DNA of 64,000 bases from a virus, in the IMG/VR virus record IMGVR_UViG_3300006919_000042, positions 1 to 64,000 of that record. The stretch is one strand, 5' to 3'. The notes below the pieces were generated by a model. The model ran no database searches, was not told the DNA's origin, and saw only the letters and a list, made by a program, of their open reading frames with translations. This document shows, in pieces, positions 10,385 to 40,808 of this stretch. Each line of letters begins with the position of its first letter. Position 1 is the stretch's first letter. A program made the position numbers and the translations under genes.

Positions 10385-11437
10385 ATGACATTCATTCAAA
10401 AGAAAGTAGTAGAATACTTTCAACTGAATACCAATTATAAGTCAGCTAAGGGCTGGATTTATGGTGGCAAATGTCCTTGGTGTAATAATTCAGATAAATT
10501 TGGAGTAAAGCTCAATCAAACAACCGCACAATATAAGAATCAAATATCGTACAACTGTTTTCACGGATCATGTCAACAAAGGGGAAGCGAATTCAAGCTA
10601 CTCAACCACATTGGGTTGGGACATTTATTGAAACATGGTGAATTTATAGGAGAAAAGGAAAAGATAAAGAATACACTGTTTGCGGAGGATGAGGAATCAT
10701 CGAGCATTGAAGTTGAAGAGGTGTCTTTACCATTAGGCTTCAGAAGGGTCCTCAGTGACCCGTACCTAGAAGGTAGAGGATTTGAACCATGGCAATTTCA
10801 GTATTACATCATTGGAAGAACTAAGTGGTATGCACCACTAAAAGACTATGTACTATTTTCAATTACAGAAGATGGTAAACATAAAGGGTATATTGGAAGA
10901 TCGACATGGAGTAGGGAGCAAATGGATGATTATAACGCATCAATAAAGCTATTCAATGCTACTTGTGATAAAGAGAACCGCAAAAGGGAGCATGTCAAGT
11001 TCAACAATGAGGGCGGTGTCGATTTTGGAAAGTTGTTATTTGGATTTGATGAAGTAACCGAAAACACCGAAGAGGTGATATTAGTAGAAGGGGTAACTGA
11101 CAAAGCAAACGTTGACAAACTTCTCAGATTAGATAAGAGTGATAAACTCAAGTGTTTATGCACATTTGGTAAGAAGATCAGTGAATCTCAAATCCGAAAA
11201 CTGAAAACTAAAGGGATATCAAAAGTAATTTTAATGTATGACCCTGATGCAATAGATGAATCGAAAAAATATAGTATTGAGTTAGAATTGTGGGATATAA
11301 GAGTAAAAGTTGGATATTTACCAGACAAAGATCCAGGTGATCTGAACCGAGAAGAATTGACAACTGTATTGTCACAGACACAAACGCCAAATCAATTTGC
11401 TAGCTCAAAAATGCAAAAAAGAAAATTAGGAAAATGA
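10385..11437 (+). CDS. DNA primase (Zn finger + TOPRIM)
   Basis: CPWC..CFHGSC zinc finger; LVEGVTD, YDPD and KDPGD TOPRIM motifs. Confidence 0.85.
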   Translation: MTFIQKKVVEYFQLNTNYKSAKGWIYGGKCPWCNNSDKFGVKLNQTTAQYKNQISYNCFHGSCQQRGSEFKLLNHIGLGHLLKHGEFIGEKEKIKNTLFAEDEESSSIEVEEVSLPLGFRRVLSDPYLEGRGFEPWQFQYYIIGRTKWYAPLKDYVLFSITEDGKHKGYIGRSTWSREQMDDYNASIKLFNATCDKENRKREHVKFNNEGGVDFGKLLFGFDEVTENTEEVILVEGVTDKANVDKLLRLDKSDKLKCLCTFGKKISESQIRKLKTKGISKVILMYDPDAIDESKKYSIELELWDIRVKVGYLPDKDPGDLNREELTTVLSQTQTPNQFASSKMQKRKLGK

Positions 11438-11943
11438 ATAAATCGAGACACCAATCACTGTATGACTTTTTACAAGCACTACAATTAGAGTACGTAAGTG
11501 CAGAATTAAGAAGCAAAATCTATACATCAAACAGTGACAAACGCTACTATAAGCGAGTGATGAGTCATAAAAAAGAGAAGATTGAAGATATTTCACTACG
11601 AAATGATCTGAATACAATATTTACCGACGATTCAGTTAAGAAGGAAGTCTATGCATTAACACATACTAAGTTTGGGATACCAACTTTCGTGTATCGCAAC
11701 GATGAGGACAAAGCAAAATTTGAAGAATCAGATTTACTCAACTATTTCTCAGTTGGATCAGAAGTCAAAATTCAAGGTGATGATGAGAGCGTCGAAATAG
11801 GAATCATTGTAGATGCTCAGCAATTTGAGAATAAATGGAATGATGGAAATAACGATATAGATAGCATCCCTATCGTAGTAAAGAAGAGAAGAGATCAGAA
11901 CGAAGCAATAGTGCTCGTATCGCAGATCTCAAGAATATTATAA
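11434..11943 (+). CDS. Hypothetical protein
   Basis: 169-aa ORF, ATGA overlap. Confidence 0.6.
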   Translation: MNKSRHQSLYDFLQALQLEYVSAELRSKIYTSNSDKRYYKRVMSHKKEKIEDISLRNDLNTIFTDDSVKKEVYALTHTKFGIPTFVYRNDEDKAKFEESDLLNYFSVGSEVKIQGDDESVEIGIIVDAQQFENKWNDGNNDIDSIPIVVKKRRDQNEAIVLVSQISRIL

Positions 11944-11963: not shown

Positions 11964-12461
11964 ATGGGAAGAAAGTACCAATCTACTAAGATCTTTGACA
12001 ACTATTCTGTCGCTCTTAGACAATGGAAAGCAGCACATAGCCACTGCCAATTACTACACGGCTACGCATTAGAATTTAAGGTGATCTTTGAATCAGTAGA
12101 GAAGGACATAGATAAGCAGTTAGATGAGATGAACTGGATTATGGACTATGGTGGATTCAAATCAACAGATGCACAACCTACTCCAGGAAATGGACTGAAA
12201 GATTGGATGAATGATATGTGGGATCACACGACATTAATCGAGAAAGACGATCCACAACTAGAAACATTTCAATACATGGAGGAATTAGGTCTATGTAAAT
12301 TGAAAGTGATGGATGCAATGGGAGCAGAATCATGCGCTAAATTAGTATTCGATCATTTTAGCGAGAGACTCGCACTTACTGGAGGAGGAAGAGTAAAAGT
12401 ATTTTCAGTTGAGTGTTGGGAAGCTAAACGTAACAGTTCAATCTACACAGAAAATGGATAG
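11964..12461 (+). CDS. queD: 6-carboxy-5,6,7,8-tetrahydropterin synthase
   Basis: SHCQLLHGY, WIMDYGG, WDHT and GAES motifs. Confidence 0.9.
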   Translation: MGRKYQSTKIFDNYSVALRQWKAAHSHCQLLHGYALEFKVIFESVEKDIDKQLDEMNWIMDYGGFKSTDAQPTPGNGLKDWMNDMWDHTTLIEKDDPQLETFQYMEELGLCKLKVMDAMGAESCAKLVFDHFSERLALTGGGRVKVFSVECWEAKRNSSIYTENG

Positions 12462-13227
12462 AATCATAGATTATAAAAAAGTGCTACCGATTGTCGAGGT
12501 TTATACTGCAGTACAATCAGAGGGTAGCAGAGCGGGTTATCCGACAGTAGTAATTAGAACTACTGGATGTACCCACAGATGCTTCTTCGGTGAAGGAGGA
12601 TGGTGTGATTCGTGGTACACGAGCATTCATCCTGAGAAAGGTAAGTTCACATTTTATAGTATTGTTGAAATGTATTACAATAATCCACACATCAAAGAAA
12701 TGATGTTAACTGGAGGAAGTCCTACAATGCACCCGAAATTAGTGAATGAGTTAACACACTTTGCTCACGAACATGGTATCTTCATTACAATGGAAACTGA
12801 GGGGAGCCATTTTATCAAGACAGACTATCCAATTGATTTGATCTCACTCAGCCCTAAATTAGGTAACTCAATTCCAGTATTAGGAGAAACGACACCGCAA
12901 GGCAAGATTGTTGATGAGAGAATGATTAAGCAACACAATAAGCTGCGATTGAATATGGGAGCAATGTTAGATACCATTGCATATCATAAAGACTATCACA
13001 TCAAACCAGTTTGGGATGGAGATGATATGAAAACGCTAGAAGAAATCAAAAAATTGATATTCTTATTAGACGTACCTGAGGATAAAGTGTGGTTTATGCC
13101 TGCAGGAGATAGTAGAGAAGCACTATTCAAGTCATATCCATTAGTATTTGATTGGGTAAGAGACAATGGATATAGAATGACATGGAGACCACACATTATA
13201 GCTTTTGAAGATGCTAGAGAAGTTTAA
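12454..13227 (+). CDS. queE: 7-carboxy-7-deazaguanine synthase (radical SAM)
   Basis: VQSEG, RTTGCTHRCFFGEGGWCDS (CX3CX7C), LTGGSP, ETEG, SPK; likely start ATG 12454. Confidence 0.93.
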   Translation: MDRIIDYKKVLPIVEVYTAVQSEGSRAGYPTVVIRTTGCTHRCFFGEGGWCDSWYTSIHPEKGKFTFYSIVEMYYNNPHIKEMMLTGGSPTMHPKLVNELTHFAHEHGIFITMETEGSHFIKTDYPIDLISLSPKLGNSIPVLGETTPQGKIVDERMIKQHNKLRLNMGAMLDTIAYHKDYHIKPVWDGDDMKTLEEIKKLIFLLDVPEDKVWFMPAGDSREALFKSYPLVFDWVRDNGYRMTWRPHIIAFEDAREV

Positions 13228-13260: not shown

Positions 13261-13892
13261 ATAAAATTATTAAAAACTGCCAATGGCAATATTCACAGAA
13301 CTGAGGAAGAAAAAGCAAAGATGATTGCTGAAGGCGCAGTTCATTATGGAAATTTTTTAACAGCTATGGGCTTTGATTGGAGAGCTGATCAGAATACAGA
13401 GAATACTCCGTTCAGATACGCTAAAAGTTGGGTGGAGGACATGATTAGTGGAACAATAGGAACACCACCTAAGATCACTGCATTTCCATCTGATCACTAT
13501 GATGGTATCGTACTTCAAAAAGATATTCCATTCAGTTCGATGTGTTCACATCATAATCGTGAGATCACTGGAAAGGTTCATATTGCGTATATACCAAGTG
13601 ATGGTGGTGAAGTAATAGGATTATCTAAGATGAACCGACTAGTTGATTTCTATTCAAGAAGACCTCAAATTCAAGAAGGTATGACGATGCAGATTTACGA
13701 AGCATTGAATGAGGTTCTTAAGGACAATAAAGGTATTGCAGTTATTGTTAAGGAGAACATGGCTGCGTAAAATGTAGAGGAGTGAGACATCACGGTGCTG
13801 CAATGATAACATCCAAATTAACTGGATTCTTTTTTGATAACAAATTAGGAACTCGCGTTGAGCTATTCAACCTAATCGCAAACCATAAATAA
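13261..13892 (+). CDS. folE: GTP cyclohydrolase I; apparent 1-nt deletion near 13751 and uncertain start
   Basis: TPFRYAK, SMCSHH, GLSKMNR, RRPQIQE; the required H-x-C-x3-RG (EHGCVKCRG) and TSKLTG lie in the -1 frame ending at TAA 13890-13892. Confidence 0.9.
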
Positions 13893-14407
13893 TGAAAGAA
13901 TTAATCGCTGACTACAAGATTCGACGATACTGCAAGCGACTTGCGAACGAAATATCTGCAGATCATCACACTAATGGACAGTCCGAAGAGATTGTGTTGT
14001 TAGGAGTAATGAATGGAGCTATGCCTTTCTTAGTCGATTTGTCAAGATTGATCGACCCTAAGATTCCAGTGATTATCGATACAGTGAAATGTAGCAGTTA
14101 TACTGGAATGTTCACAAAAAGTAAAGTTAAAATGAGCAAAGCTCCTGATAATGACTTATCATACAAGACTGTAATTATAGTCGAGGATATAGTTGATACA
14201 GGAGATACAATGACATTTTTAGTCAATAAACTTAATTCAAAATACAATCGTATTGACTTGAAAGTGTGTTCGTTATTGAAAAGAAGAGATTGTAGATTCA
14301 GAGTTGATTATCTTGGACGGATAGTCGATGAAGGTTTGTGGTTAATAGGCTATGGACTAGACGATGATGGATTTAAACGTAACTTAAAAAGTATATTCAT
14401 AAAATGA
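13892..14407 (+). CDS. Purine phosphoribosyltransferase (HPRT-like)
   Basis: VMNGAMPF, SSY, PRPP-binding VIIVEDIVDTGDT, GYGLD. Confidence 0.9.
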   Translation: MKELIADYKIRRYCKRLANEISADHHTNGQSEEIVLLGVMNGAMPFLVDLSRLIDPKIPVIIDTVKCSSYTGMFTKSKVKMSKAPDNDLSYKTVIIVEDIVDTGDTMTFLVNKLNSKYNRIDLKVCSLLKRRDCRFRVDYLGRIVDEGLWLIGYGLDDDGFKRNLKSIFIK

Positions 14408-14931
14408 GATTAAATGCAAAACAGATCCTTGAAAGAGGGATCATCACCGGAGAGATTACTAATGATCAGATAGCACAAGTTGGTATTGATTTGAGAGTAA
14501 TCGAAATTGAGAGAGTTTTTGGTGGAGGAGTAATTCCTAGAGAAGGGAAAACACTTCTAGCCAAACGTGAAAAGGTCAAGAGACAGTCGCCAACTGAAGT
14601 AAAGTCACTAGGACTTACTGGAGCAGTTTGGATGTTAGAGCCTGGTGTATATGATATTACATTCGCAGAAGGATGTGACATGGCACCTAATGTGTCTGGA
14701 AGAATCATTCACAGAAGCTCTTTGTTGAGAAACGGAGGGATTTTGAGATCAGGTGAATTCGATCCAGGATTTAGTACTAAGAACATTGGAGCAGTTATGA
14801 CAATTAACATACCAATGTTGATTGAATTTAAAGCAAGATTAGGTCAATTCATAGTTGATGAAAACGAACCAGTCAATCCAGAAGACTTATATAACGGTCA
14901 ATGGCAAGGAGATAAACAAAGAAAATCGTAA
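14404..14931 (+). CDS. Trimeric dUTPase/dCTP-deaminase fold protein
   Basis: GIDLR, HRSSLLRNG, GEFDPGF, RLGQ, YNGQWQ. Confidence 0.8.
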   Translation: MRLNAKQILERGIITGEITNDQIAQVGIDLRVIEIERVFGGGVIPREGKTLLAKREKVKRQSPTEVKSLGLTGAVWMLEPGVYDITFAEGCDMAPNVSGRIIHRSSLLRNGGILRSGEFDPGFSTKNIGAVMTINIPMLIEFKARLGQFIVDENEPVNPEDLYNGQWQGDKQRKS

Positions 14932-15845
14932 TGAAAACAGAAATCGTAGTAAAGTTTAATATCGAAGGACTCCACGCATGGCCTGGAGTAGTAGAGAACG
15001 ACAAGCTCAAAGAAGCTGTTGGATTTCTTCAATTTCCTCACAGACATCAATTTACATTCAGAGCAACTAAGCAAGTATCTCATGCAGATCGAGATATTGA
15101 AATCATTGATTTGAAGAGAATTATGATTCACTATCTATTTACCCAATATGGTAAACCACCAGTTCCAAAAGCTGAGGGGCTTTATAACAGCCACTGTGAC
15201 TTTGGCAATCAATCATGTGAAATGATTGCTCAAGAGTTAGTGGAAAAGTTTGAATTATCTTCATGTGAAGTACTTGAGGATAATGAGAATGGTGCAATAG
15301 TGACGGTTAATCAAGGAGAACCAATACCACCAGCAATGAAAAAACCGTACGAAGAAATTGAAATAGCAGACCGAATAGGTAAGGGAGCTAGAATAGTGTT
15401 CCTCTGTGGTGCATTATGTAGTGGAAAATCTTACTACAAAAAAGCATTGTTAGAACAAGAGCAGAACAATGGATATCTTGCATTAGGTATGGAAGCATCT
15501 GATATTGTTAAGAATATTCTCAAGAAAGAAAGCAGAGCTGATCTTCAAGGACATCCTGAATTAGATGTTGAGATTGTTAAAGCGATTGATGGTATGAGAG
15601 ATATGAGTAAAGATGATAGTATTCTAATAATAGTGTCTGGAGTACGTCAAAAAACGATTTTGCAGGCGTTTCCTAAGTCTGAATGTATTTGGGTAGATGC
15701 TTCTGAGTCAATTCGATATGAGCGCTTTAAAAACAGTAAAAAAGACGAAGATGTTTCACTACTTGGATTCACTCAAGCCAATGAACGAGATAATGAGTTA
15801 GGATTAACAGAACTTAAACAATATATTTTTAACCGTAATAAATAA
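14931..15845 (+). CDS. QueD-paralog T-fold (DpdL-like) domain fused to a P-loop nucleotide kinase domain
   Basis: N-terminal EGLHAWP..FLQFPHRHQF (LxxxHRHxF)..DRDIE..SCEMIA..EDNENGA; C-terminal CGALCSGKS, SGVR and R-x2-R lid. Confidence 0.7.
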   Translation: MKTEIVVKFNIEGLHAWPGVVENDKLKEAVGFLQFPHRHQFTFRATKQVSHADRDIEIIDLKRIMIHYLFTQYGKPPVPKAEGLYNSHCDFGNQSCEMIAQELVEKFELSSCEVLEDNENGAIVTVNQGEPIPPAMKKPYEEIEIADRIGKGARIVFLCGALCSGKSYYKKALLEQEQNNGYLALGMEASDIVKNILKKESRADLQGHPELDVEIVKAIDGMRDMSKDDSILIIVSGVRQKTILQAFPKSECIWVDASESIRYERFKNSKKDEDVSLLGFTQANERDNELGLTELKQYIFNRNK

Positions 15846-15849
15846 AACT

Positions 15850-16635
15850 ATGGACTTTTACGCAATACCGCCACTAAACAATTTAGATTTAATGCATAAA
15901 GGAGATCGATATTTCTGTCTCGCACAACTTTATATTGAACATCAGCATTATAGAGACTTCTTTAAGAGTCTTCCTGATACTGCATGGGTGACGTTAGATA
16001 ATGGAGCTGGTGATCACGATTTAGTTACTGAAGATATTTTATTTGAAGTGATGAGAGACTTAATGCCAAGTGAAGTAATTCCTCCAGATATTCTCTTCAA
16101 TGCTGACCAAACAATAATCAACGCAAAGAGATTCCACAGAAGAATGTGTGAAGAAGGTCTTTGTGATGACATTGAAGTATTCTTTTGTCCTCAAGGAAAG
16201 AATCAAAAGGACTGGCTAGAATGCTATCATTGGGGACTACATACATCTTGGGTTAAAACTCTAGGAATGAGTAAGATTGGAGTTCCAAAAGCATGGGTTG
16301 GATCAATAAATGATCGAGGAATTATGGAAGGTAGAATCAACGCATTCAACTATTTGAGAGTGAATGAAATGTTAAACAAGCCACTTCACTTCTTAGGTAT
16401 GGGAGATCCAAGGGAATATGCCTATTACAAACAATTCAGTGAATTTGATTGTGTTAGAAGTAGTGATAGTTGCAACTCAATTTGGAGTGCGATGAATAGT
16501 ATCAATTGGGCTGATGGAGAGTTTGTGAGAATTCCTACACCAAAAGATTATTTCAATAGAGAAATTCCGAAAGACTTAGTAATTGAGCATATAATCAAAA
16601 CAAACATTAATTACTTGAAACTATCAGTTCGCTAA
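15850..16635 (+). CDS. TGT-fold deazaguanine transglycosylase (DpdA-like, possibly DpdA3)
   Basis: LDNGA, PPD, CPQG, LHFLG and RSSDS motifs of a divergent TGT barrel; last gene of the que cluster. Confidence 0.7.
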   Translation: MDFYAIPPLNNLDLMHKGDRYFCLAQLYIEHQHYRDFFKSLPDTAWVTLDNGAGDHDLVTEDILFEVMRDLMPSEVIPPDILFNADQTIINAKRFHRRMCEEGLCDDIEVFFCPQGKNQKDWLECYHWGLHTSWVKTLGMSKIGVPKAWVGSINDRGIMEGRINAFNYLRVNEMLNKPLHFLGMGDPREYAYYKQFSEFDCVRSSDSCNSIWSAMNSINWADGEFVRIPTPKDYFNREIPKDLVIEHIIKTNINYLKLSVR

Positions 16636-16702: not shown

Positions 16703-17161
16703 ATGTCAATTACCCAAACACTTAAAGACGGTACATTTTTCGTAACAGATGATAAAGACGTAATGTGTATATTCGAAAAGAGATATGTATCAGGATTAAT
16801 GATTTCAGATTATCCTGGAATTATTCAATCAATTGAGATCACAAAAGAGGTTGTTGCAGACGCATACTTACTCGACAAAAAACAATTTGTAGATAAGTAT
16901 GAAGAGAGATTACTTCCTAAAGCACTACTAACAACATTGCAGTTATATAGGACTTTGAGAGATATCATTGTTGATGAGAAGGTTGTGATTAAAGCTGAGA
17001 AGAAAATCATCACAAAGGCACCGAAAGGTTCGAGACTTCAACAAGTGAAAAACTTAATTGCTGCAGGTATAATCAGTCCAAAAGAAATTGCAAGCCACTT
17101 AGGAACCAATGCAGCTTATGTATCAACCTTAATCCGAAAGATCAAAAATGAAAATGAGTAA
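16703..17161 (+). CDS. Hypothetical protein with C-terminal HTH
   Basis: SPKEIASHLGTNAAYVSTL; has its own promoter. Confidence 0.6.
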   Translation: MSITQTLKDGTFFVTDDKDVMCIFEKRYVSGLMISDYPGIIQSIEITKEVVADAYLLDKKQFVDKYEERLLPKALLTTLQLYRTLRDIIVDEKVVIKAEKKIITKAPKGSRLQQVKNLIAAGIISPKEIASHLGTNAAYVSTLIRKIKNENE

Positions 17162-17783
17162 TGATATAGCAAGTAAGCTCACAGGAAAGAACTTACAGGA
17201 CGCTACAGAGAATCAAATAAAATCTGAGCTGAAATTATTCATTAAGGATAATGGTGGAGAGGATTTTCTAATTGATGATGACCTAATTACTTTGATTGAG
17301 TTAGCAGCGATATATTCAGACGTCACTGACATTGATGCTAAGATTGCTGATGTTCAAGCAGAACAAAACAACCAACCACTACCAACATATAAGAGAGTTG
17401 GATGTGTGTTACGTACAGCAGATCCAAAACACAAGAAGATTGTTGAGAAGATAGCTGAGTTGATTTGCAATTTTCATTTAGACTTGACTTTTGTAATTAA
17501 AGATAAAGGCATAGCGCTAATTGATGCAACTAATGCAGTATTCACATTTGAGAATCTCAGACAGATTGAGGGAATGTCGACAGAATATAGTGGTATAGTT
17601 ACATTATCAAATATCAAAACAGATGAAGAGTTACAGAAAGTTGTTAGCCCTCAATATTATAGAGATAAGACTTGGGACTTTTTAGGAAGACTCAAGCGCT
17701 GTGAAGGAAAGTACTTTACTGTTACCGAGCTATTAGACTTGGTTGCAGATCGCAAAATAATCACATTCGACCGTTATGAATAA
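17148..17783 (+). CDS. Hypothetical protein
   Basis: 211-aa ORF overlapping both neighbours. Confidence 0.6.
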   Translation: MKMSNDIASKLTGKNLQDATENQIKSELKLFIKDNGGEDFLIDDDLITLIELAAIYSDVTDIDAKIADVQAEQNNQPLPTYKRVGCVLRTADPKHKKIVEKIAELICNFHLDLTFVIKDKGIALIDATNAVFTFENLRQIEGMSTEYSGIVTLSNIKTDEELQKVVSPQYYRDKTWDFLGRLKRCEGKYFTVTELLDLVADRKIITFDRYE

Positions 17784-20700
17784 AGAATTAGAAAATTGGT
17801 TTTTCGACAATTACATTAACTACGAAAACTACGGAGCAAATAAGTATAAGACTGCATTAGGAATAATGCAGTTATTGCCGTACAGCAATTGCATTGATGT
17901 TGAAGAAAATCAAATGGATTTACATTTGACTTATGATATTTCAGAAGATATTATAGATCAGAAGATCGATTATGTGATTTACAAATTTGGTGGGAAGTTT
18001 TACTATAACCCAATCACAGAGATTTCTAACGTTGAGCTCAAAGAACTAAAGTACATAGGAGACTACACAGAATATTTACCGAAGAATGAAGAGTCACACG
18101 TGTTCGCTGGTGTTCACGGTAGGTATGAGGTGATGAGCGGTACTCGTGACTATAAAGATTGGTGTAAAAAAGCAAAATTTCTACAATACAAGACACTTGC
18201 AATTTGTGAGAAGAATACTTTAGCTGGAACACTACCATTTCAAATGGCATGTAACAAAGCTGGATTAAACGCAATCATAGGATACTCAGCTTCGGTTGAA
18301 AATACTAACGGAGATGTCTATCAACTCAAGTTATTTTGCATTAACCATAGTGGTTGGATCAATTTGCTTGAGATCAATACAATTATCAACATTGACAATG
18401 AAGGAGTAATTGATGAAGCAGATTTGTTACCACTACTCAAAGGACTTGTCGCGGTGATTCCTCCAGGAATGCATTCACATAGAGCAGTATTATCACAATA
18501 CAATAAACACGCAGACAAAGCGTTCTTTCAGATTACAACAAACGAATATCTTTCAAATCAAAAAGACGAGACAGTACTGATATCTAGCAAGGAGTATATT
18601 GATAAGGATATGGATATAATCAATCCAATTCTAATTAGTGATGCATATTGCTTAGACCTAGAAGACACTCATATTAAACAAGTACTGAATAAGCAGGGTT
18701 CTGTTAAGCAAGAATATGCTACATCAAACCACTATCTACGTAGTTTTCAAGAGCTTGCAGACGAATTTGCAAATCTATTTGAACTCAAGGATATGAGATA
18801 TCCACAAATTTGGAATCAATCAGTCAATTCACTAGCGTGGATCAATAATCAATGTAAATTTAATATCAATACAAAAGAACTATTTTTGCCCAAATATGAA
18901 ATGACCGACAAAGAGGTTGTTAAGTATGGGACGCCTGAGAAGATGTTTGAGATGTTAATTTATGAAGGCTTGATAAAAAAGTTTCCTGATAATGTAGCTC
19001 AGTCTGATGATATCTGGAAAAGAATTCACATGGAACAAGATGTAATCACTAGAGGTGGTTTTATTGACTATTTCTTAATTCTATGGGACATCATCAATTG
19101 GTGTAAAACACAGAACATTCAAGTGGGACCTGGAAGGGGATCAGCTGCAGGATGTTTGATATCATATTTGCTAGGTGTAGTTAAAATTAATCCACTTCAA
19201 TTTGGATTAATCTTTGAGCGGTTCCTAAATGAATCTCGTATCAAAGAAGAGATGCCAGATATTGATTTAGATTTCGCGTCAGACAGAAGAGATGAGGTGA
19301 TTGAATATATGAGGACCCGATACGGACACGACTTTGTTTGTAGAGTAGGGACGTATGGGACACTACAGATGAGAGGTGTGATTAAAGAACTTGCACGTGC
19401 ATATAGTTACAATGGGACCTATGAAATGAACTTCATAACACACCTAATTGAAGACAACGAAGATTGGCAATTCATATTCAAGAATTCATTAGGAAATCCA
19501 GTACTGAAAAACTTCATTGTTGATAATCCTGAGATAGTAAATGATGCAAAGATTGTATTTAATTCAATCAAGTCAACATCAATGCACGCTTGTGCTACAA
19601 TTATAGTACCAAAAATTAAAGATAAGGATGGAAACTTATTAAATATCTATCAACAAATTCCTGTCAGAAAAGAGAATGGAATGGTCGTTAGTGAGTGGGA
19701 GGGAGATATAATGGCAGATGCTGGATTCTTGAAAGAGGATATCTTATCAACCAAACAGATGGCTAAGATCGGTCACATATTTGATTTAGTTAAAGAGAGA
19801 ACTGGGATACAACTTGACATGGAGAAGATTCCACTTGATGACCCTGAAGTATTTAATCTATTCAAACAAGGGTATAATCAAGACGTATTCCACTTTGGAT
19901 CTACTGGATTAACATCATATTTGAAGCAATTGAAGCCTGACAATATTGAAGAGCTTATTGCAGCAATTGCATTATATCGTCCAGGAGCAATGGCATCTAA
20001 TTCACATACACAGTACGTTAAGTTTAAAGACAAAGAGCTGCGAGCTACATATGATTTCGGACTAAAAGATGTCACTCAAGATACTTACGGACTGTACATA
20101 TATCAAGAACAGATTATGAAGGCTGTGCAGGTATTAGGTGGGTTTACAATGACCGAAGCAGATGGTGTTAGAAAGGCAATGGGTAAAAAGATAAAGTCTA
20201 AGATGGACAGTTATCGTGTTCAATTCCTTGAGAATGCAGTACAGAAAGGTTGTGATGAAAAAGAAGCAATATTAATTTGGGATAAGTTAGAGGTGTTCTC
20301 AGGATATGGATTCAATAAGTCGCATGCTGCAGCATATGCAGTAATTGGTTACTATTGTAATTGGCTAAAACATCATCATCCACTAGAATTCTGGACAGTA
20401 GCATTTCAATTTGCTGATGAGAAGAAGATATTGGATTATGTAGGAGAGATTCATAGAGTAGGGGACATCGAGATTGTTGCACCAGATATCAATAATTCAC
20501 AAATGGAGTTTAAGAGTGATGTTGAAAAGAACAGAATTTACTGGAACCTAAGTAGTATCAAATTTGTAGGTGAAGTTGCATCAACTGATATTATAGAAGA
20601 GCGAACTAAAAACGGCAAGTTCTTTAGCATGGAAGAGTTCACTGAAAGACTCGGTGGCAAATCTGTTAATAAAAGAGTTGTTGAACAACTGATTCTTGCT

Positions 20701-21276
20701 GGATGCTTTGATGATATGTATAAAGTGGTTAATCCTAGAGAGCGATTCAAAGCACTAGAAGACTACTACACAACGACTAAGCATAAAATGAAGGAGGAAT
20801 TTTCTGATAATAAGTCAGTGGACTACTACTGGTCAATCAAGCAGTCAGAGGTAAGTAAATTGAGTAATTTAGATTACGATAAGCTGATTGCAGAATCTAT
20901 GTTTGCGCCATTTAGTGATAAAACATATATAACATTAGAGAAATTGAATTCACTCAAACTTGGTACCGACAAAAGTAAGACAGCAATCATCGCTGGAATG
21001 GTAGAAGAGATAGTAGTTCGTAAGACTAAAGACAAAAGATCGTATTGCGTGATAACAATCCAACAGCATGATGACAAAGCCTACATCAGAGCTTGGCCAC
21101 AGCAATTAGAATTAGTGGAAGATGACCCGAGATTTTTTCAGTTAGGGCAACTCATTGCATCAAACGAAAAGAAACTCGCAATTTTCAGAGGAAAGTTAGC
21201 ATACAACTCATATATAAACGGTAATGAGTTAGTGATGAGTGATAGGCTACAAGGACCAATGTTACAAATTTTCTAA
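17776..21276 (+). CDS. dnaE: DNA polymerase III alpha subunit (family C)
   Basis: PHP-like domain, GPGRGSAAG, FERFLN, MPDIDLDF, LYRPG, IYQEQ, YGFNKSH. Confidence 0.96.
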   Translation: MNKELENWFFDNYINYENYGANKYKTALGIMQLLPYSNCIDVEENQMDLHLTYDISEDIIDQKIDYVIYKFGGKFYYNPITEISNVELKELKYIGDYTEYLPKNEESHVFAGVHGRYEVMSGTRDYKDWCKKAKFLQYKTLAICEKNTLAGTLPFQMACNKAGLNAIIGYSASVENTNGDVYQLKLFCINHSGWINLLEINTIINIDNEGVIDEADLLPLLKGLVAVIPPGMHSHRAVLSQYNKHADKAFFQITTNEYLSNQKDETVLISSKEYIDKDMDIINPILISDAYCLDLEDTHIKQVLNKQGSVKQEYATSNHYLRSFQELADEFANLFELKDMRYPQIWNQSVNSLAWINNQCKFNINTKELFLPKYEMTDKEVVKYGTPEKMFEMLIYEGLIKKFPDNVAQSDDIWKRIHMEQDVITRGGFIDYFLILWDIINWCKTQNIQVGPGRGSAAGCLISYLLGVVKINPLQFGLIFERFLNESRIKEEMPDIDLDFASDRRDEVIEYMRTRYGHDFVCRVGTYGTLQMRGVIKELARAYSYNGTYEMNFITHLIEDNEDWQFIFKNSLGNPVLKNFIVDNPEIVNDAKIVFNSIKSTSMHACATIIVPKIKDKDGNLLNIYQQIPVRKENGMVVSEWEGDIMADAGFLKEDILSTKQMAKIGHIFDLVKERTGIQLDMEKIPLDDPEVFNLFKQGYNQDVFHFGSTGLTSYLKQLKPDNIEELIAAIALYRPGAMASNSHTQYVKFKDKELRATYDFGLKDVTQDTYGLYIYQEQIMKAVQVLGGFTMTEADGVRKAMGKKIKSKMDSYRVQFLENAVQKGCDEKEAILIWDKLEVFSGYGFNKSHAAAYAVIGYYCNWLKHHHPLEFWTVAFQFADEKKILDYVGEIHRVGDIEIVAPDINNSQMEFKSDVEKNRIYWNLSSIKFVGEVASTDIIEERTKNGKFFSMEEFTERLGGKSVNKRVVEQLILAGCFDDMYKVVNPRERFKALEDYYTTTKHKMKEEFSDNKSVDYYWSIKQSEVSKLSNLDYDKLIAESMFAPFSDKTYITLEKLNSLKLGTDKSKTAIIAGMVEEIVVRKTKDKRSYCVITIQQHDDKAYIRAWPQQLELVEDDPRFFQLGQLIASNEKKLAIFRGKLAYNSYINGNELVMSDRLQGPMLQIF

Positions 21277-35866: not shown

Positions 35867-37372
35867 ATGAGTAAAAAAATCAAAGCAATCGTAAGTGAGA
35901 AAACAATCGTTATCCACTACGACGGGAAAAAAGTTAACATCCAAAAACAGACGGATCAAACACTATTCCAAGAAGTATCTCTGTTGATTGACAACAAAGA
36001 TGAAAAGGCATTAATTGCCAAATTCAAATCGATCAAAGAGATCGCAGAAAAATTCTCCAACAAGATGATTGAAGTTGATAATGATGGCAAAGCCACTCTG
36101 AAAGGAAGTGACCGAGTTATTCCACCTGCAGTGATTAAGAAGATGTTAGAGCTTGAAAAAGACCAACAAGACTTCTTACCACTAATCAGATTCTGGAGAA
36201 AACTTCAAAAGAACCCTAGTACTAATTCACGTGAACAACTTTATGGATTCATGCTTGCCAATCATATTCCGATTACAGAGCAAGGTGACATAGTTGTTGA
36301 AAAAGGAGTTAGTCAAAAACGAGGTGGAGTTCCAGGTCATTTAATTGACGGACACTCAGGAACAGTTGATAATAGTGTTGGACAGACTGTAGAAATGCCT
36401 AGAAGTGGTGTCGTTGATGATCCAAAACAAACTTGTAGTCGAGGACTTCATGTTGGAGCACCTGACTTCGTTAGAAATCACTGGAACCAAAAGATCATCA
36501 TTGAATGTGTAGTTAATCCTGAGGACGTAGTATCTGTTCCAGTTGATTATAGGAACACCAAGATGAGAGTTTGTAAGTATAAAGTAATGGGATATAGTTC
36601 TAAGAGTGAGAGAACTAATCAAGTCGTTGCAGTATCCGATTTTGTTACACTACCAAGTGAGGCTGTATTGAAACTTCTTAAAGATGGTGTTGAAGGTGGA
36701 AAAGAGCAGAATGAGCCTAATGAGAAGCAGGCTGTAGTTACTAGCATTAAAGTCAATAAATCAATTACAACTACCAATGAGTATGTTGAAACATTGAGTA
36801 AGATGACTGCAGGTAAAATCATCACACACGTTGAGGAGGTTACAGGAACGAAGATTACCCTTAATCCTAAGAACAAGAAAGCCATCATCAAGAAAGGTGC
36901 TGAGTTACTTGAGATATTCCACACCACTAAACAGATTGCTGCGACGCAAGAAACTCAAGATGAAGTAATTGCTACTGTCAAGAAGCAAGAAACTGGTCCT
37001 TGGAGTGTAAGAATGACAAGTGCTGGTAGCAGTAAACTTGCAGTAGCTAAACTATATGTTGAACAATTCAATTGTGGTTTAAGAGCTGGTAAGCAGATGA
37101 TTGATAAAGCACCATTCGTTATGATATCAGGTGCTAGTAAAAGATTTGCTGAAAGATATGTAAAGCTGTTTACTGAGGTTGGTGCTAAGATGGAGACGTT
37201 CAAACCGAATGTTGATAAGAAAGAGATCGTTCTTTCAAACCACACAATTCCTCAACTAATTGGAATGGTACAAGCTAAATTCAATGAGAGAATTAAGAGT
37301 AGAGCGCCTAGAACAGAGGTTGAATCTATCACAAGAAAGCTGTATGAAAGTGCAGGTTATAAAGTAATCTAA
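35867..37372 (+). CDS. rIIB: rIIB-like protein with a fused ribosomal bL12 CTD-like domain
   Basis: NPS..QLYGF, EMPRSGV, CSRGLHVG, VNPEDVVSVP, KMRVCKY; L12-like segment at about 37001-37204. Confidence 0.85.
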   Translation: MSKKIKAIVSEKTIVIHYDGKKVNIQKQTDQTLFQEVSLLIDNKDEKALIAKFKSIKEIAEKFSNKMIEVDNDGKATLKGSDRVIPPAVIKKMLELEKDQQDFLPLIRFWRKLQKNPSTNSREQLYGFMLANHIPITEQGDIVVEKGVSQKRGGVPGHLIDGHSGTVDNSVGQTVEMPRSGVVDDPKQTCSRGLHVGAPDFVRNHWNQKIIIECVVNPEDVVSVPVDYRNTKMRVCKYKVMGYSSKSERTNQVVAVSDFVTLPSEAVLKLLKDGVEGGKEQNEPNEKQAVVTSIKVNKSITTTNEYVETLSKMTAGKIITHVEEVTGTKITLNPKNKKAIIKKGAELLEIFHTTKQIAATQETQDEVIATVKKQETGPWSVRMTSAGSSKLAVAKLYVEQFNCGLRAGKQMIDKAPFVMISGASKRFAERYVKLFTEVGAKMETFKPNVDKKEIVLSNHTIPQLIGMVQAKFNERIKSRAPRTEVESITRKLYESAGYKVI

Positions 37373-37417: not shown

Positions 37418-37630
37418 ATGATAGTTTATAGAGAAGAGAAAGGTGGACTGATTACATTAGATGTATCAACACTGACGGCTGAGGAACTGACTGAGGAAGT
37501 CTTAGACAGATTCTATGTAATAGTAAGAAAGAAGTGGTGGGAGTCTCATCGTAGATTCTTGAAGAGAATTGCTAAAGTTTATAAGCAAAAGTCAAACACA
37601 ATGGTAACATATAAAGGAAAAGTATTATGA
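37418..37630 (+). CDS. Hypothetical protein
   Basis: 70-aa ORF. Confidence 0.5.
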   Translation: MIVYREEKGGLITLDVSTLTAEELTEEVLDRFYVIVRKKWWESHRRFLKRIAKVYKQKSNTMVTYKGKVL

Positions 37631-38238
37631 TAATAGCAATCTCCGGTAAGGCTGGATCAGGAAAGGATGAAGTAGGTAAGATTATTCAATATCTTACAAG
37701 TCCAAGTGCAATATCAAAAGGAACTTATACACATTGTCAACAGTACGGTCACGTATATGACGTTGACTTTGTAATTCATAAGTTCGCTGCAAAGCTCAAA
37801 TCAAGTATCGAGCATAAGTTTCCAAACGATTTCAATGCATTCTTGTGGGAGACCTCAGGATCTGAATATCGTGATGAAGTAATTAAATGCTTAGGAATGA
37901 CTCGTAGAGAGTTGTTGATTGATGAAGCAATGGCACTCAGAGGGATTAATAAGGATTATTGGGTAGCAGCATTGATGGGAGAATACACTCTAGCAAGAAA
38001 GTGGTTGATAACAGATATGAGATTTCCAAACGAACTTGAAGCTGTTGTTGAGAAACAAGGGTTCTGCTTACGTGTAGAACGTCCAGGAGCAAAGTTAATC
38101 GACTCAATCTCAGAAACTAGCTTAGACCACATCGTAGGTCAAGGAAAAGGCTTAGATGACGTAATCATCAATGATGGAACTATTGAGCAATTAGTTCAGT
38201 GCGTTCGTCATTGGATGATAGAGAGAGAGTTGCTTTGA
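37627..38238 (+). CDS. Deoxynucleoside monophosphate kinase
   Basis: ISGKAGSGKD, FAAKLK, ITDMRFPNE, SETSLD, INDGT. Confidence 0.88.
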   Translation: MIIAISGKAGSGKDEVGKIIQYLTSPSAISKGTYTHCQQYGHVYDVDFVIHKFAAKLKSSIEHKFPNDFNAFLWETSGSEYRDEVIKCLGMTRRELLIDEAMALRGINKDYWVAALMGEYTLARKWLITDMRFPNELEAVVEKQGFCLRVERPGAKLIDSISETSLDHIVGQGKGLDDVIINDGTIEQLVQCVRHWMIERELL

Positions 38239-38729: not shown

Positions 38730-38813
38730 AAAATACAATCGAATAACCCATTCAAGAACTAAAGATTGTTAGTATTTTTATACTTCAATTTCAAAAAAAT
38801 AACACCCACCAAC

Positions 38814-40808
38814 ATGGCGAGAAAATTCAAACTCAAGCAAGCATTTATAGAGCAATACAAAACCAAAAAGCCTCCATTCGGATTTAATGGCTTGGGAGAA
38901 TTAACATACATCAGGACATATTCAAGAGTAAAAGCAGATGGGACCAACGAGGTTTGGTATGAAACAGTAAGAAGAGTAGTCGAAGGTACGTACAGAATTC
39001 AGCAGCGACATATTGAAAAGTATGGACTTGGCTGGAGTGAGTGGAAAGCTAATAATTCAGCTGAGGAGATGTATGATCGAATGTTCTCAATGAAGTTCCT
39101 TCCTCCTGGAAGAGGACTTTGGGCAATGGGAACAGCACTAACTGAGGAGCGAGATTTGTTTGCAGCATTAAACAACTGTGCATTCGTATCGACTGAGAAT
39201 ATTGGTTATAGTGGCGATGAAGCAGTTAAGCCATTTACATTCCTGATGGATATGAGTATGTTGGGAGTAGGAGTAGGATTTGATGTTCATGGAGAAAATA
39301 AGATTATTCTTGAAACACCTGATACAGAACAAATTACCTATAAGATTCCAGATACACGTGAAGGTTGGGTAGAGTCAGTTTCAATACTACTCAAGAATTA
39401 TTTCATGAAAGGACAGAAGCAAGTAGAATTTGATTATTCAGACATTCGTCCATATGGAACGCTAATTAAAACGTTTGGAGGTACTGCCTCAGGACCAGAT
39501 CCATTAATAGAACTACACAATCAGATCCGCAAGACATTCTCAGATAGACAAGATGAAAGAATCACTCAAACAGATATCGTTGATATCATGAACCACATTG
39601 GTTGCTGCGTAGTTGCAGGTAATGTCAGACGTACAGCTGAAATAGTATTTGGAAGTCCTAAAAGTGATGAGTATTTGAAGCTTAAAAGTTACACATACAA
39701 TGCAGAAAAGGGTATTTATGAAGGAGAAATGGCTCACAGAGCTGATTATGGTTGGACATCAAACAATAGCGTTTATGCTGAATTAGGAATGGATTATTCC
39801 AAAGTAGCTAATCAAACAGCACGTAACGGAGAACCAGGATATGCATGGCTACAGAATATGCAAAAGTTTGGAAGAATGGTTGATCCACCAAACTGGAAAG
39901 ATAAGAAAGCTAAGGGAGCAAATCCTTGTGTAGAACAAACACTAGAATCATTTGAACTATGTTGTTTGGTTGAAACTTTTCCTACACTACATACTGACAT
40001 GGAAGATTACCTAAAGACGTTAAAATACGCTTATTTATATGCCAAAACAGTAACATTAGGGAAGACTCACTGGAGTGAAACTAATAAAGTGATGCTACGT
40101 AACAGAAGAATTGGAACATCACAAAGTGGAATTGCACAATTTGTTGAGAAGCACGGATTAGAAACTTACAGACAATGGTGTAATAATGGATACAATACAA
40201 TTCAAGCATACGATGAAGAGTACAGTGATTGGTTATGTATTCCAAGATCGATCAAAACAACTAGTGTAAAGCCAAGTGGAACAGTAAGTCTGTTGCCAGG
40301 AGTTACACCAGGAATGCACTATCCTGAGGCAGCTTGGTATAAGAGAAGAATCAGAATAGCTACAACCAGCGCACTTGTACAGAAATGTATTGATGCTGGA
40401 TATCACGTTGAGCCTGATGTAGTTAGTAGTAAAACAATGGTAGTTACAGTTCCTGTTCACATTCCAGGAGTGAGAACAATTGATCAAGTGTCGATGTGGG
40501 AACAACTGTCATTAGCTGCATTCATACAGCATTGGTGGGCAGACAATCAGGTAAGTTGTACAGTAACTTTCCAAAAAGAAGAGGGATCGCAGATTAAAGC
40601 TGCGTTGAACTACTTTCAATACAAGCTAAAAGGGATCAGTTTTCTACCAAAGACGGAAGCAGGTGCGTTTGCACAGATGCCTTACGAAGAGATAACAGAA
40701 CAAGAGTATGAAGATAGCGTCAAAGGGATTAAAGCACTAGACTTTAGTGGTGTTGGAGAGGATAGTACTCCAGAGAAGTATTGTGACTCAAGCAGTTGTG
40801 AGATATAA
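38814..40808 (+). CDS. nrdJ: Class II (adenosylcobalamin) ribonucleotide reductase, monomeric type
   Basis: RTYSR, PPGRGLW, LNNC, GNVRR, NPCVEQ, VKPSGT, C-terminal CDSSSC; no beta subunit nearby. Confidence 0.92.
   Translation: MARKFKLKQAFIEQYKTKKPPFGFNGLGELTYIRTYSRVKADGTNEVWYETVRRVVEGTYRIQQRHIEKYGLGWSEWKANNSAEEMYDRMFSMKFLPPGRGLWAMGTALTEERDLFAALNNCAFVSTENIGYSGDEAVKPFTFLMDMSMLGVGVGFDVHGENKIILETPDTEQITYKIPDTREGWVESVSILLKNYFMKGQKQVEFDYSDIRPYGTLIKTFGGTASGPDPLIELHNQIRKTFSDRQDERITQTDIVDIMNHIGCCVVAGNVRRTAEIVFGSPKSDEYLKLKSYTYNAEKGIYEGEMAHRADYGWTSNNSVYAELGMDYSKVANQTARNGEPGYAWLQNMQKFGRMVDPPNWKDKKAKGANPCVEQTLESFELCCLVETFPTLHTDMEDYLKTLKYAYLYAKTVTLGKTHWSETNKVMLRNRRIGTSQSGIAQFVEKHGLETYRQWCNNGYNTIQAYDEEYSDWLCIPRSIKTTSVKPSGTVSLLPGVTPGMHYPEAAWYKRRIRIATTSALVQKCIDAGYHVEPDVVSSKTMVVTVPVHIPGVRTIDQVSMWEQLSLAAFIQHWWADNQVSCTVTFQKEEGSQIKAALNYFQYKLKGISFLPKTEAGAFAQMPYEEITEQEYEDSVKGIKALDFSGVGEDSTPEKYCDSSSCEI

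Follow-up and report, generated by a model that had tools for sequence, protein, structure and literature searches.

Three phages that encode DpdA3 are the closest described systems to the DNA considered here. In phiST, 2'-deoxy-7-deazaguanine (dDG) replaces all detectable dG, and every G is replaced by fdPreQ1 in immuto_2-6A and by dADG in CP220; full replacement of G is seen only with DpdA3, whereas the DNA-acting DpdA subfamilies reach 0.1–30% (Hutinet et al. 2023, PMC10516641). A route through a modified dGTP was proposed in 2019 for Campylobacter phages (Crippen et al. 2019, as relayed by Hutinet 2019 and 2023), and was set aside in 2023 on the discovery of DpdA3, all such modifications then being called post-replicative (Hutinet et al. 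2023, PMC10516641). Base exchange on DNA by DpdA3 has never been demonstrated, and attempts in E. coli failed: DpdA3 together with DpdL, the proposed decarboxylase of 7-carboxy-7-deazaguanine (CDG), an activity unproven even in phiST, gave no dDG (Hutinet et al. 2023, PMC10516641). Our literature search found no later paper on the mechanism of DpdA3. We analysed a window of 64,000 nucleotides (positions 1 to 64,000 of the 88-kb IMG/VR virus record IMGVR_UViG_3300006919_000042, completeness estimate 86%), in which the genes at 13892–15845 encode an HPRT-type 6-oxopurine phosphoribosyltransferase (PRTase), a protein of the DCD/dUTPase superfamily, and DpdL fused to a P-loop domain with the nucleoside monophosphate (NMP) kinase fold, followed at once by DpdA3.

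Small P-loop kinases are the most constant neighbour of DpdA3 in metagenomic viruses. With a confidence close to even, though on the lower side of it, we lean to the reading that DpdA3 systems build the deaza-nucleotide in the nucleotide pool, from which the modified base would enter DNA.

The DpdL–kinase fusion in a phiST-type cluster

The gene order of the window is QueD, QueE, FolE, HPRT, DCD/dUTPase-like, DpdL::kinase, DpdA3, two further genes, and DnaE, and that of phiST is QueD, QueE, FolE, MazG-like gp039, DpdL (gp040), the AAA_18 'ATPase' gp041, DpdA3 (gp042), and DnaE. The two clusters thus share the pathway genes and their order, with DnaE downstream in both and QueC in neither; QueE has 69–74% DNA identity to its counterparts in phiST and immuto_2-6A. 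They differ in that DpdL and the kinase, separate neighbours in phiST, are one polypeptide in the window, that a DCD/dUTPase-fold protein stands where phiST has MazG-like gp039, and that the window has an added HPRT and a FolE with a start-codon change and a frameshift. The genome context of DpdL, in which FolE, QueD, QueE, and a DpdA occur without QueC, is found in the record as well, where the search for QueC gave no match, a soft absence at 88 kb and about 86% completeness. Judged by its genes, the stretch is the middle of a phiST-type dDG module, and the phage, of a marine type, probably carries 7-deazaguanine for guanine in its DNA. A role of these genes in host tRNA queuosine or general purine metabolism, with the fusion incidental, has a historical basis in phages with Q-precursor genes and no recognised DpdA; it is highly improbable for a cluster that has DpdL and DpdA3, in which QueC was not found, and that is the counterpart of one whose phage has dDG for dG.

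The three open reading frames (ORFs) at 13892–15845 overlap on the plus strand and encode 171, 175, and 304 aa, the last at 14931–15845. The ATG of HPRT shares its A with the TAA that ends the frame of the FolE C-terminus (TAATG, 13890–13894), the HPRT stop and the start of the DCD-like gene overlap as ATGA at 14404–14407, and the fusion gene starts within TAATG at 14929–14933. The whole window is transcribed in a single direction, at a G+C content of about 37%. The original prediction described the HPRT-like enzyme as translationally coupled inside the cluster and the DpdL-like domain as fused to an NMP-kinase-like domain, and both descriptions hold; its account of the region is otherwise incomplete, having left out the DCD-like gene between them.

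The first domain of the fusion, a paralogue of QueD, carries the signature LxxxHRHxF as LQFPHRHQF at residues 33–41, with His37, Arg38, His39, and Phe41 invariant in 16 homologues. This signature sets DpdL apart from QueD, which has CxxxHGH (Hutinet et al. 2023, PMC10516641). The domain is 37% identical to phiST DpdL gp040, and in the AlphaFold model of the fusion (mean predicted local distance difference test score, pLDDT, 86.6; below 50 in linker residues 129–142) its Foldseek matches include E. coli QueD (4ntk) and PTPS, of the T-fold. The second domain is 27% identical to phiST gp041 and matches adenylate and UMP/CMP kinases by fold (3lw7, 4pzl, and 1uke at E 3e-6 to 2e-5). Its Walker A sequence is CGALCSGKS, and the motifs conserved in the family are GxxxxGKS, R..LQ, GVRQ, W, and RxxR. 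Arg54, Arg91 (in GVRQ), and Arg117 are invariant in the kinase alignment and may be the counterparts of the adenylate kinase arginines that serve the acceptor phosphate and the LID, GVRQ resembling DGFPR. A profile of the family reaches the AdkA-like Sulfolobus protein SSO1041 (3lw7/3h0k) at E 1e-9, and 3lw7 is AMP-bound.

The fusion was considered as an assembly artefact and this was rejected, because 15 other full-length homologues in metagenomes (284–332 aa, identity down to 34%) carry DpdL::kinase. On the DpdA3 tree, the loci with a DpdL::kinase fusion group into two clades, that of the window and another (L146–L156). A single origin of the fusion was also considered: parsimony needs two changes, and the strongly supported branches taken alone are compatible with one origin.

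DpdA3 of the window is 47% identical to the founding member of its subfamily, phiST gp042 (CGPG_00065), and its AF2 model (pLDDT 94) matches Z. mobilis tRNA-guanine transglycosylase (TGT), a (beta/alpha)8 barrel, at Z 16.7, with 226–232 residues aligned. The Foldseek matches include the solved DNA preQ0 insertase DpdA (7ui4) and the protein-modifying Cap10. Asp50, Asp80, Asp206, and the motif HLLGMG are invariant, and Asp206 would be the counterpart of the TGT nucleophile; no Cys is invariant in 22 DpdA3 sequences, and the zinc site of TGT is therefore not conserved. With 261 aa the chain is short, against 326–577 residues in the matched solved TGT-type chains. The kinship with TGT is visible by fold comparison only, the DpdA3 profile having no match among PDB sequences. 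The same profile finds CP220 DpdA3 at E 8e-28, and hhalign relates it to immuto_2-6A DpdA at 99.5% probability; tblastn with the window's DpdA3 or kinase did not reach immuto_2-6A or CP220, for which profiles were needed.

Kinase, hydrolase, and phosphoribosyltransferase genes around DpdA3

A search for related loci with the single fusion protein found none, whereas an alignment-based scan did find them. The comparison covers 80 viral loci collected via DpdL and 80 via DpdA3, with phiST, MA9V-3, immuto_2-6A, and CP220 added. The loci are metagenomic fragments whose neighbours were classed by seed sequences and small profiles, so that absences are soft, and the contigs were reduced to clusters at 70% identity, which are still not fully independent. 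In the first sample of 84 loci, DpdA3 occurs with this kinase family in 29 and without it in five, DpdL occurs without DpdA3 or the kinase in 49, and the kinase stands alone in one, on a contig that ends right after it. The kinase therefore tracks DpdA3, not DpdL. At least one locus without DpdA3 (L009) has a long, weakly TGT-like gene adjoining DpdL; PF01702 (TGT) gave no match in five virus records with DpdL only, phage DpdA being too divergent for this family model.

The 112 viral DpdA3 loci form 30 clusters, and a small P-loop kinase lies within 6 kb of DpdA3 in 24 of them. An NTP-pyrophosphatase-like gene is found in 16 of the 30, including all 13 with FolE adjacent, and a 6-oxopurine PRTase in 12. 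The original prediction had proposed to look for co-occurrence across phages, and these counts bear on it. CGPG_00066, the kinase gene of phiST, has been described as lacking homologues among other deazaguanine phages (Hutinet et al. 2023, PMC10516641); in metagenomic viruses, to the contrary, this kinase is the steadiest companion of DpdA3. DpdL, kinase, and DpdA3 follow one another in this order in many viral contigs, and several lineages repeat the order PRTase, DCD-like, DpdL, kinase, with either an HPRT-like or a Gpt/XPRT-like enzyme at the PRTase position. The hydrolase position is filled by enzymes that are not homologous: DCD-like in the window, in MA9V-3, and in many contigs, MazG-like in phiST (gp039) and immuto_2-6A (gene 63), DUF1599 in L016 and L017, and an HD domain in CP220. 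In a large T4-like clade the trio DpdL-kinase-DpdA3 lies beside tail genes, far from FolE, QueD, and QueE, which speaks against these genes merely sharing an island of nucleotide metabolism.

The two other full-replacement phages have a comparable arrangement. Between QueE and the polymerase, Flavobacterium phage immuto_2-6A has a PRTase (gene 60), a MazG/PRA-PH-type pyrophosphohydrolase (gene 63), DpdA3 (gene 65), DpdN (gene 67), and a kinase of the AAA_28 family whose annotation is thymidylate kinase (gene 68). In Campylobacter phage CP220, DpdA3 is CPT_0056; directly upstream is CPT_0055 (L087:9543-10574), a fusion of an HD phosphohydrolase and an AAA_33 kinase, and directly downstream is CPT_0057, an AAA_28 kinase. 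Both phages resemble the window in the flanking neighbours of DpdA3, a P-loop kinase and an enzyme of the NTP- or phosphohydrolase type, and immuto_2-6A shares in addition a 6-oxopurine-type PRTase. The differences lie in the kinases, which are AAA_28 or AAA_33, in the final bases, and in DpdL, which neither cluster has. In two independent cases, DpdL::kinase in the window and HD::kinase in CP220, fusion links a kinase to an enzyme of the pathway or of nucleotide metabolism.

Several other genes were observed at the collected loci. A ThyX gene (PF02511, E 1e-47) lies between DpdL and the kinase at L040:8315-8977, and an equally long ORF takes this position at L037:421-1083. DUF1599 ('nucleotide modification associated domain 1') stands between DpdL and DpdA3, at the usual place of the kinase, at L016:8318-8818 and L017:8306-8794. 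Extra ORFs of about 370 aa separate DpdL::kinase from DpdA3 in two close relatives of the window (L004:8182-9324 and L006:9608-10705) and may be mobile elements. The T4-like trio is followed by a conserved block comprising a glycosyltransferase-like gene (PF13712, E 8e-6), a weakly DUF366-like gene, and three small family-less genes (L043:9548-12477; also in L026, L029, L040, L046, L052, L057, L060, L062, and L070). At two loci without DpdA3, a group 1 glycosyltransferase is encoded beside or near DpdL (L045:8300-9256 and L020:9047-10057), which may point to further decoration of the deazaguanine.

Exchange in the nucleotide pool or in finished DNA

In the route that we favour, FolE, QueD, and QueE would convert GTP to CDG; DpdA3 would act on a free deoxyguanosine nucleotide, of which dGMP is the simplest case, and put CDG or 7-deazaguanine (DG) in the place of its guanine; DpdL would strip the 7-carboxyl, on the base or on the nucleotide; and the kinase fused to DpdL would phosphorylate the dDG monophosphate. 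A host nucleoside diphosphate kinase would complete dDGTP (no such gene was found in the record), and the phage DnaE would incorporate it. The DCD/dUTPase-like protein would hydrolyse a canonical dNTP, and if this is dGTP, a competitor would be removed and dGMP supplied, while HPRT would return the released guanine through GMP to GTP for FolE. DpdA3 would then be not a DNA transglycosylase but the first TGT-family enzyme to exchange the base of a free deoxyguanosine nucleotide and, with DpdL, the kinase, and a dGTP-removing pyrophosphatase, would form a pre-replicative route to 7-deaza-dGTP and its derivatives. We advance this fuller proposal tentatively, as a substantial possibility.

The DpdL::kinase fusion and the conserved adjacency suggest a single process in which DpdL, the kinase, and DpdA3 all take part. 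An enzyme of the NMP-kinase fold and a dNTP hydrolase would have an obvious place in a free-nucleotide pathway and none obvious in a base swap on finished DNA. Enzymes of the QueD/PTPS family bind a guanine-like ring that bears a triphosphate chain, and the paralogue DpdL may therefore be pre-adapted to bind a nucleotide. In addition, ADG nucleoside was seen in the cytoplasm of cells infected with CP220 (Hutinet et al. 2023, PMC10516641). Taken with the linkage of the genes, the folds may point to pre-replicative incorporation.

Pre-replicative replacement of a base is familiar from T4, where hydroxymethyl-dC is made with the dCTPase gp56, gp42, and the dNMP kinase gp1, and from the Z-genome phages with PurZ, DatZ, and MazZ. 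By analogy, the DpdA3 clusters would likewise combine a hydrolase of a canonical dNTP, an enzyme for the modified dNMP, a kinase dedicated to it, and the polymerase of the phage, although none of their member enzymes is homologous to those of either system. To our knowledge, the formation of a dNMP via base exchange by a TGT-fold enzyme has no precedent.

The published model has DpdA3 act on DNA after replication, as a transglycosylase that puts DG or CDG in place of every G. The P-loop protein would then assist as an ATPase or work as a housekeeping or polynucleotide kinase, the DCD-like gene would encode nothing more than a dUTPase, and HPRT would recycle the large quantity of guanine cut out of the DNA. 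The assignment of DpdA3 as the inserting enzyme, with all 7-deazaguanine modifications post-replicative, comes from Hutinet et al. (2023, PMC10516641) and agrees with its TGT fold and with the solved DpdA among the fold matches; it is less easily reconciled with complete replacement being confined to DpdA3, when the subfamilies proven to act on DNA stay far below it, or with E. coli DNA left unmodified by DpdA3 and DpdL. A helper role of the P-loop protein has a parallel in bacterial DpdA, which needs ATP hydrolysis by DpdB (PMC10164549), and weak Pnkp and KTI12-type matches were obtained for phiST gp041 and CPT_0055; against such a role, the family has the fold of NMP kinases, the crystals of the closest solved relative contained AMP, the kinase forms one chain with a small-molecule enzyme here and with an HD phosphohydrolase in CP220, and the 49 DpdL loci without DpdA3, at least one of which has the long TGT-like gene, never carry it. 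The plain dUTPase accords with the lack of another dUTPase among the genes found in the record, and is at odds with the retention of the NTP-hydrolase position by non-homologous enzymes. Both PRTase types at DpdA3 loci being guanine-salvage families is as the model would have it. Overall, we regard the published model as a doubtful but serious alternative.

Beside this model and the weak Pnkp and KTI12 matches, other points weigh against a route through the pool. Its support consists of gene linkage and fold. The substrates of the TGT and DpdA enzymes characterised so far are all polynucleotides, apart from that of Cap10, which is a protein, and the NMP-kinase fold also occurs in ATPase cofactors and in polynucleotide kinases. 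In six of the 30 DpdA3 clusters, no kinase was found within 6 kb. Phage genes of nucleotide metabolism often cluster anyway, and ThyX or ThyA lies near some of the loci. FolE, the first enzyme of the route, appears damaged in the window, and the DCD-like protein, the sole dUTPase-like gene product of the record, may be an ordinary dUTPase. Finally, hhalign of the kinase profile against the kinases of immuto_2-6A and CP220 aligns the P-loop only; these kinases are analogues, not orthologues, which makes the recurrence of a kinase beside DpdA3 the more telling.

The DCD-like protein scores 44.5 bits with PF22769, whose cut-off is 27 bits, and stays below the cut-offs of the archaeal-type dUTPase model NF002598 (68.8 against 130 bits) and of TIGR02274 (24.5 against 92.8 bits), so that it has no identity as dUTPase or dCTP deaminase at the equivalog level. 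The alignment of its family retains RHRSSLLRNG and FDPGF (the RSS..R and D-P-G-F motifs) and, as we read it, has no Glu at the position of the catalytic Glu of dCTP deaminase; the protein is therefore read as probably a dNTP pyrophosphatase. No other dUTPase and no MazG gene was found in the 88-kb record.

The HPRT-type enzyme (Pfam Pribosyltran, E 9e-15) is about 30% identical to solved bacterial hypoxanthine-guanine phosphoribosyltransferases (HGPRTs) in end-to-end alignments. Its TIGR01203 (HGPRTase) score of 111 bits lies under the equivalog cut-off of 150 bits, which marks it as a divergent member whose annotation is no guarantee of substrate range. It retains the flexible-loop SSY (CSSY), the phosphoribosyl pyrophosphate (PRPP) motif VIIVEDIVDTGDT, an acidic pair followed by D-T-G, with the Asp that in HGPRTs faces purine N7, the Lys that contacts O6 (in LLKRR), and GYGLD (GLWLIGYGLD), and has a Trp at the position of the stacking Phe of HGPRTs. 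Asp102, Trp150, and G-x-G-x-D are invariant in seven phage homologues, and no mark of specialisation for a 7-deaza substrate was seen in the sequence.

The original prediction had sketched a route in which the PRTase or the DpdA-like enzyme serves as an entry into nucleotides. In its PRTase version, taken on the logic of tubercidin synthesis, HPRT would couple DG, or CDG as TubE does, to PRPP, DpdL would decarboxylate, the kinase would form the diphosphate, NrdJ would reduce it, and DnaE would incorporate the product, with DpdA3 only patching residual G. The class II reductase and the phage DnaE that it names are present in the window, and the PRTase is coupled to the cluster in an order that recurs. 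There is a precedent in the tubercidin and toyocamycin pathways, which share FolE, QueD, QueE, and a purine PRTase homologue (TubE or ToyH, acting on CDG or preQ0) and decarboxylation at the deazapurine stage, and which differ in a UbiD-family decarboxylase that acts on the ribonucleotide, in having no TGT-like enzyme, and in a product that is a secondary metabolite, not DNA (PMC6112128). TubE makes the CDG ribonucleotide from PRPP and rejects 7-deazaguanine (PMC6112128), which bears on DG as the substrate; in addition, the contacts to guanine and hypoxanthine are of the canonical kind in the HPRT of the window, the Asp that faces N7 among them, and the universal partner of the kinase is DpdA3, which this scheme leaves without a main role. 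For this last reason above all we consider it unlikely. The reduction step by NrdJ would be needed only because of the PRTase route.

Because a PRTase occurs in only 12 of the 30 DpdA3 clusters, and the examined locus of phiST, a phage with full dDG content, yielded none, the HPRT of the window is unlikely to be the main entry into nucleotides and may be viewed as an accessory enzyme. Both PRTase types at DpdA3 loci belong to ordinary 6-oxopurine salvage families (HPRT-like; Gpt/XPRT-like), and with the retained Asp that would face N7 the other route of the original prediction, recycling of guanine to feed FolE, therefore fits the enzyme better. HPRT most likely returns released guanine to GMP, and thence to GTP for FolE, rather than attaching deazaguanine. 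The prediction had this as the only role of the PRTase in a scheme opposed to a nucleotide-level one, a restriction that we drop: recycling would be useful whether the guanine comes from nucleotides or from DNA, and is compatible with a nucleotide-level route run by DpdA3. In sum, the nucleotide-level pathway that the prediction put forward gains from the kinase, NTP-hydrolase-like, and PRTase genes that recur at DpdA3, including in the three full-replacement phages, and loses the PRTase as its main entry.

Surroundings of the cluster and significance

The features of the window are collected in Table 1. The T4 gp1-type dNMP kinase, which the original prediction had correctly noted as separate from the fused kinase, and the class II ribonucleotide reductase lie about 20 kb from the cluster.

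Table 1 Features of the cluster and related genes, in coordinates of the 64-kb window
Feature	Coordinates	Strand	Evidence
QueD (6-carboxytetrahydropterin synthase, PTPS family)	11964..12461	+	motif CQLLHGY; Pfam PTPS E 5e-10
QueE (7-carboxy-7-deazaguanine synthase, radical SAM)	12409..13227	+	TIGR03365 E 8e-15
FolE (GTP cyclohydrolase I), two lesions	13261..13892	+	Pfam GTP_cyclohydroI E 5e-35 over 13321-13770
6-oxopurine phosphoribosyltransferase (HPRT/HGPRT family)	13892..14407	+	TIGR01203 E 5e-32; alignments to solved HGPRTs
DCD/dUTPase-superfamily protein	14404..14931	+	PF22769 E 2e-11; NF002598 E 4e-19
DpdL domain of fusion, residues 1-128	14931..15314	+	LQFPHRHQF; phrog_17812 E 2e-19
Variable linker of fusion	15315..15374	+	modelled as disordered; length-variable in alignment of homologues
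P-loop NMP-kinase-fold domain of fusion, residues ~149-304	15375..15845	+	AAA_18 E 5e-8
DpdA3 (minimal TGT-fold transglycosylase-like, 261 aa)	15850..16635	+	phrog_20335 E 1e-70
DnaE-type DNA polymerase III alpha subunit	17776..21276	+	NF004226 E 6e-198
Separate T4 gp1-type dNMP kinase	37627..38238	+	PF21448 DNMK E 1e-7
Class II (B12-dependent) ribonucleotide reductase NrdJ	38766..40808	+	PF17975 E 3e-39; PF21995 E 1e-18

FolE of the window has two lesions. Position 13261 reads ATA-AAA, where four relatives have the start ATG-AAA, and a -1 frame change at about 13753–13758 displaces its last ~40 residues (HGCVKCRGV...), the displaced frame ending with the TAA at 13890–13892 that overlaps the HPRT start. 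Accordingly, tblastn with FolE of a relative (L003) finds the gene split over two frames. The lesions may stem from faulty assembly, from recoding at this site, or from decay of a gene for which host FolE stands in.

On the 5' side of QueD are genes for a terminase, DnaB, a primase, and a family-less protein of 169 aa. The family-less genes of the cluster, at 11434–11943, 16703–17161, and 17148–17783, are kept only in close relatives (L003–L007), and ESM Atlas look-ups for the first and the last gave no usable match. Farther downstream, a protein of 501 aa (35867–37372) has a ribosomal L7/L12 C-terminal domain (PF00542, E 4e-9) at residues 380–443, and the gene that precedes it encodes 725 aa with a GHKL ATPase domain.

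The conserved linkage of the kinase may account for the failure of DpdA3 and DpdL by themselves in E. coli, and a route through the pool, if true, would explain why only DpdA3 phages reach complete replacement of G. It would then join the modified pyrimidines of the T4 type and the diaminopurine of the Z-genome phages as a third way in which nature rewrites the DNA alphabet. DNA with 7-deaza-G withstands restriction enzymes, and synthetic biology already makes use of 7-deazaguanines (Hutinet et al. 2023, PMC10516641); the genes described here would, if the route is true, be a compact set for making fully 7-deaza-G DNA in vivo.

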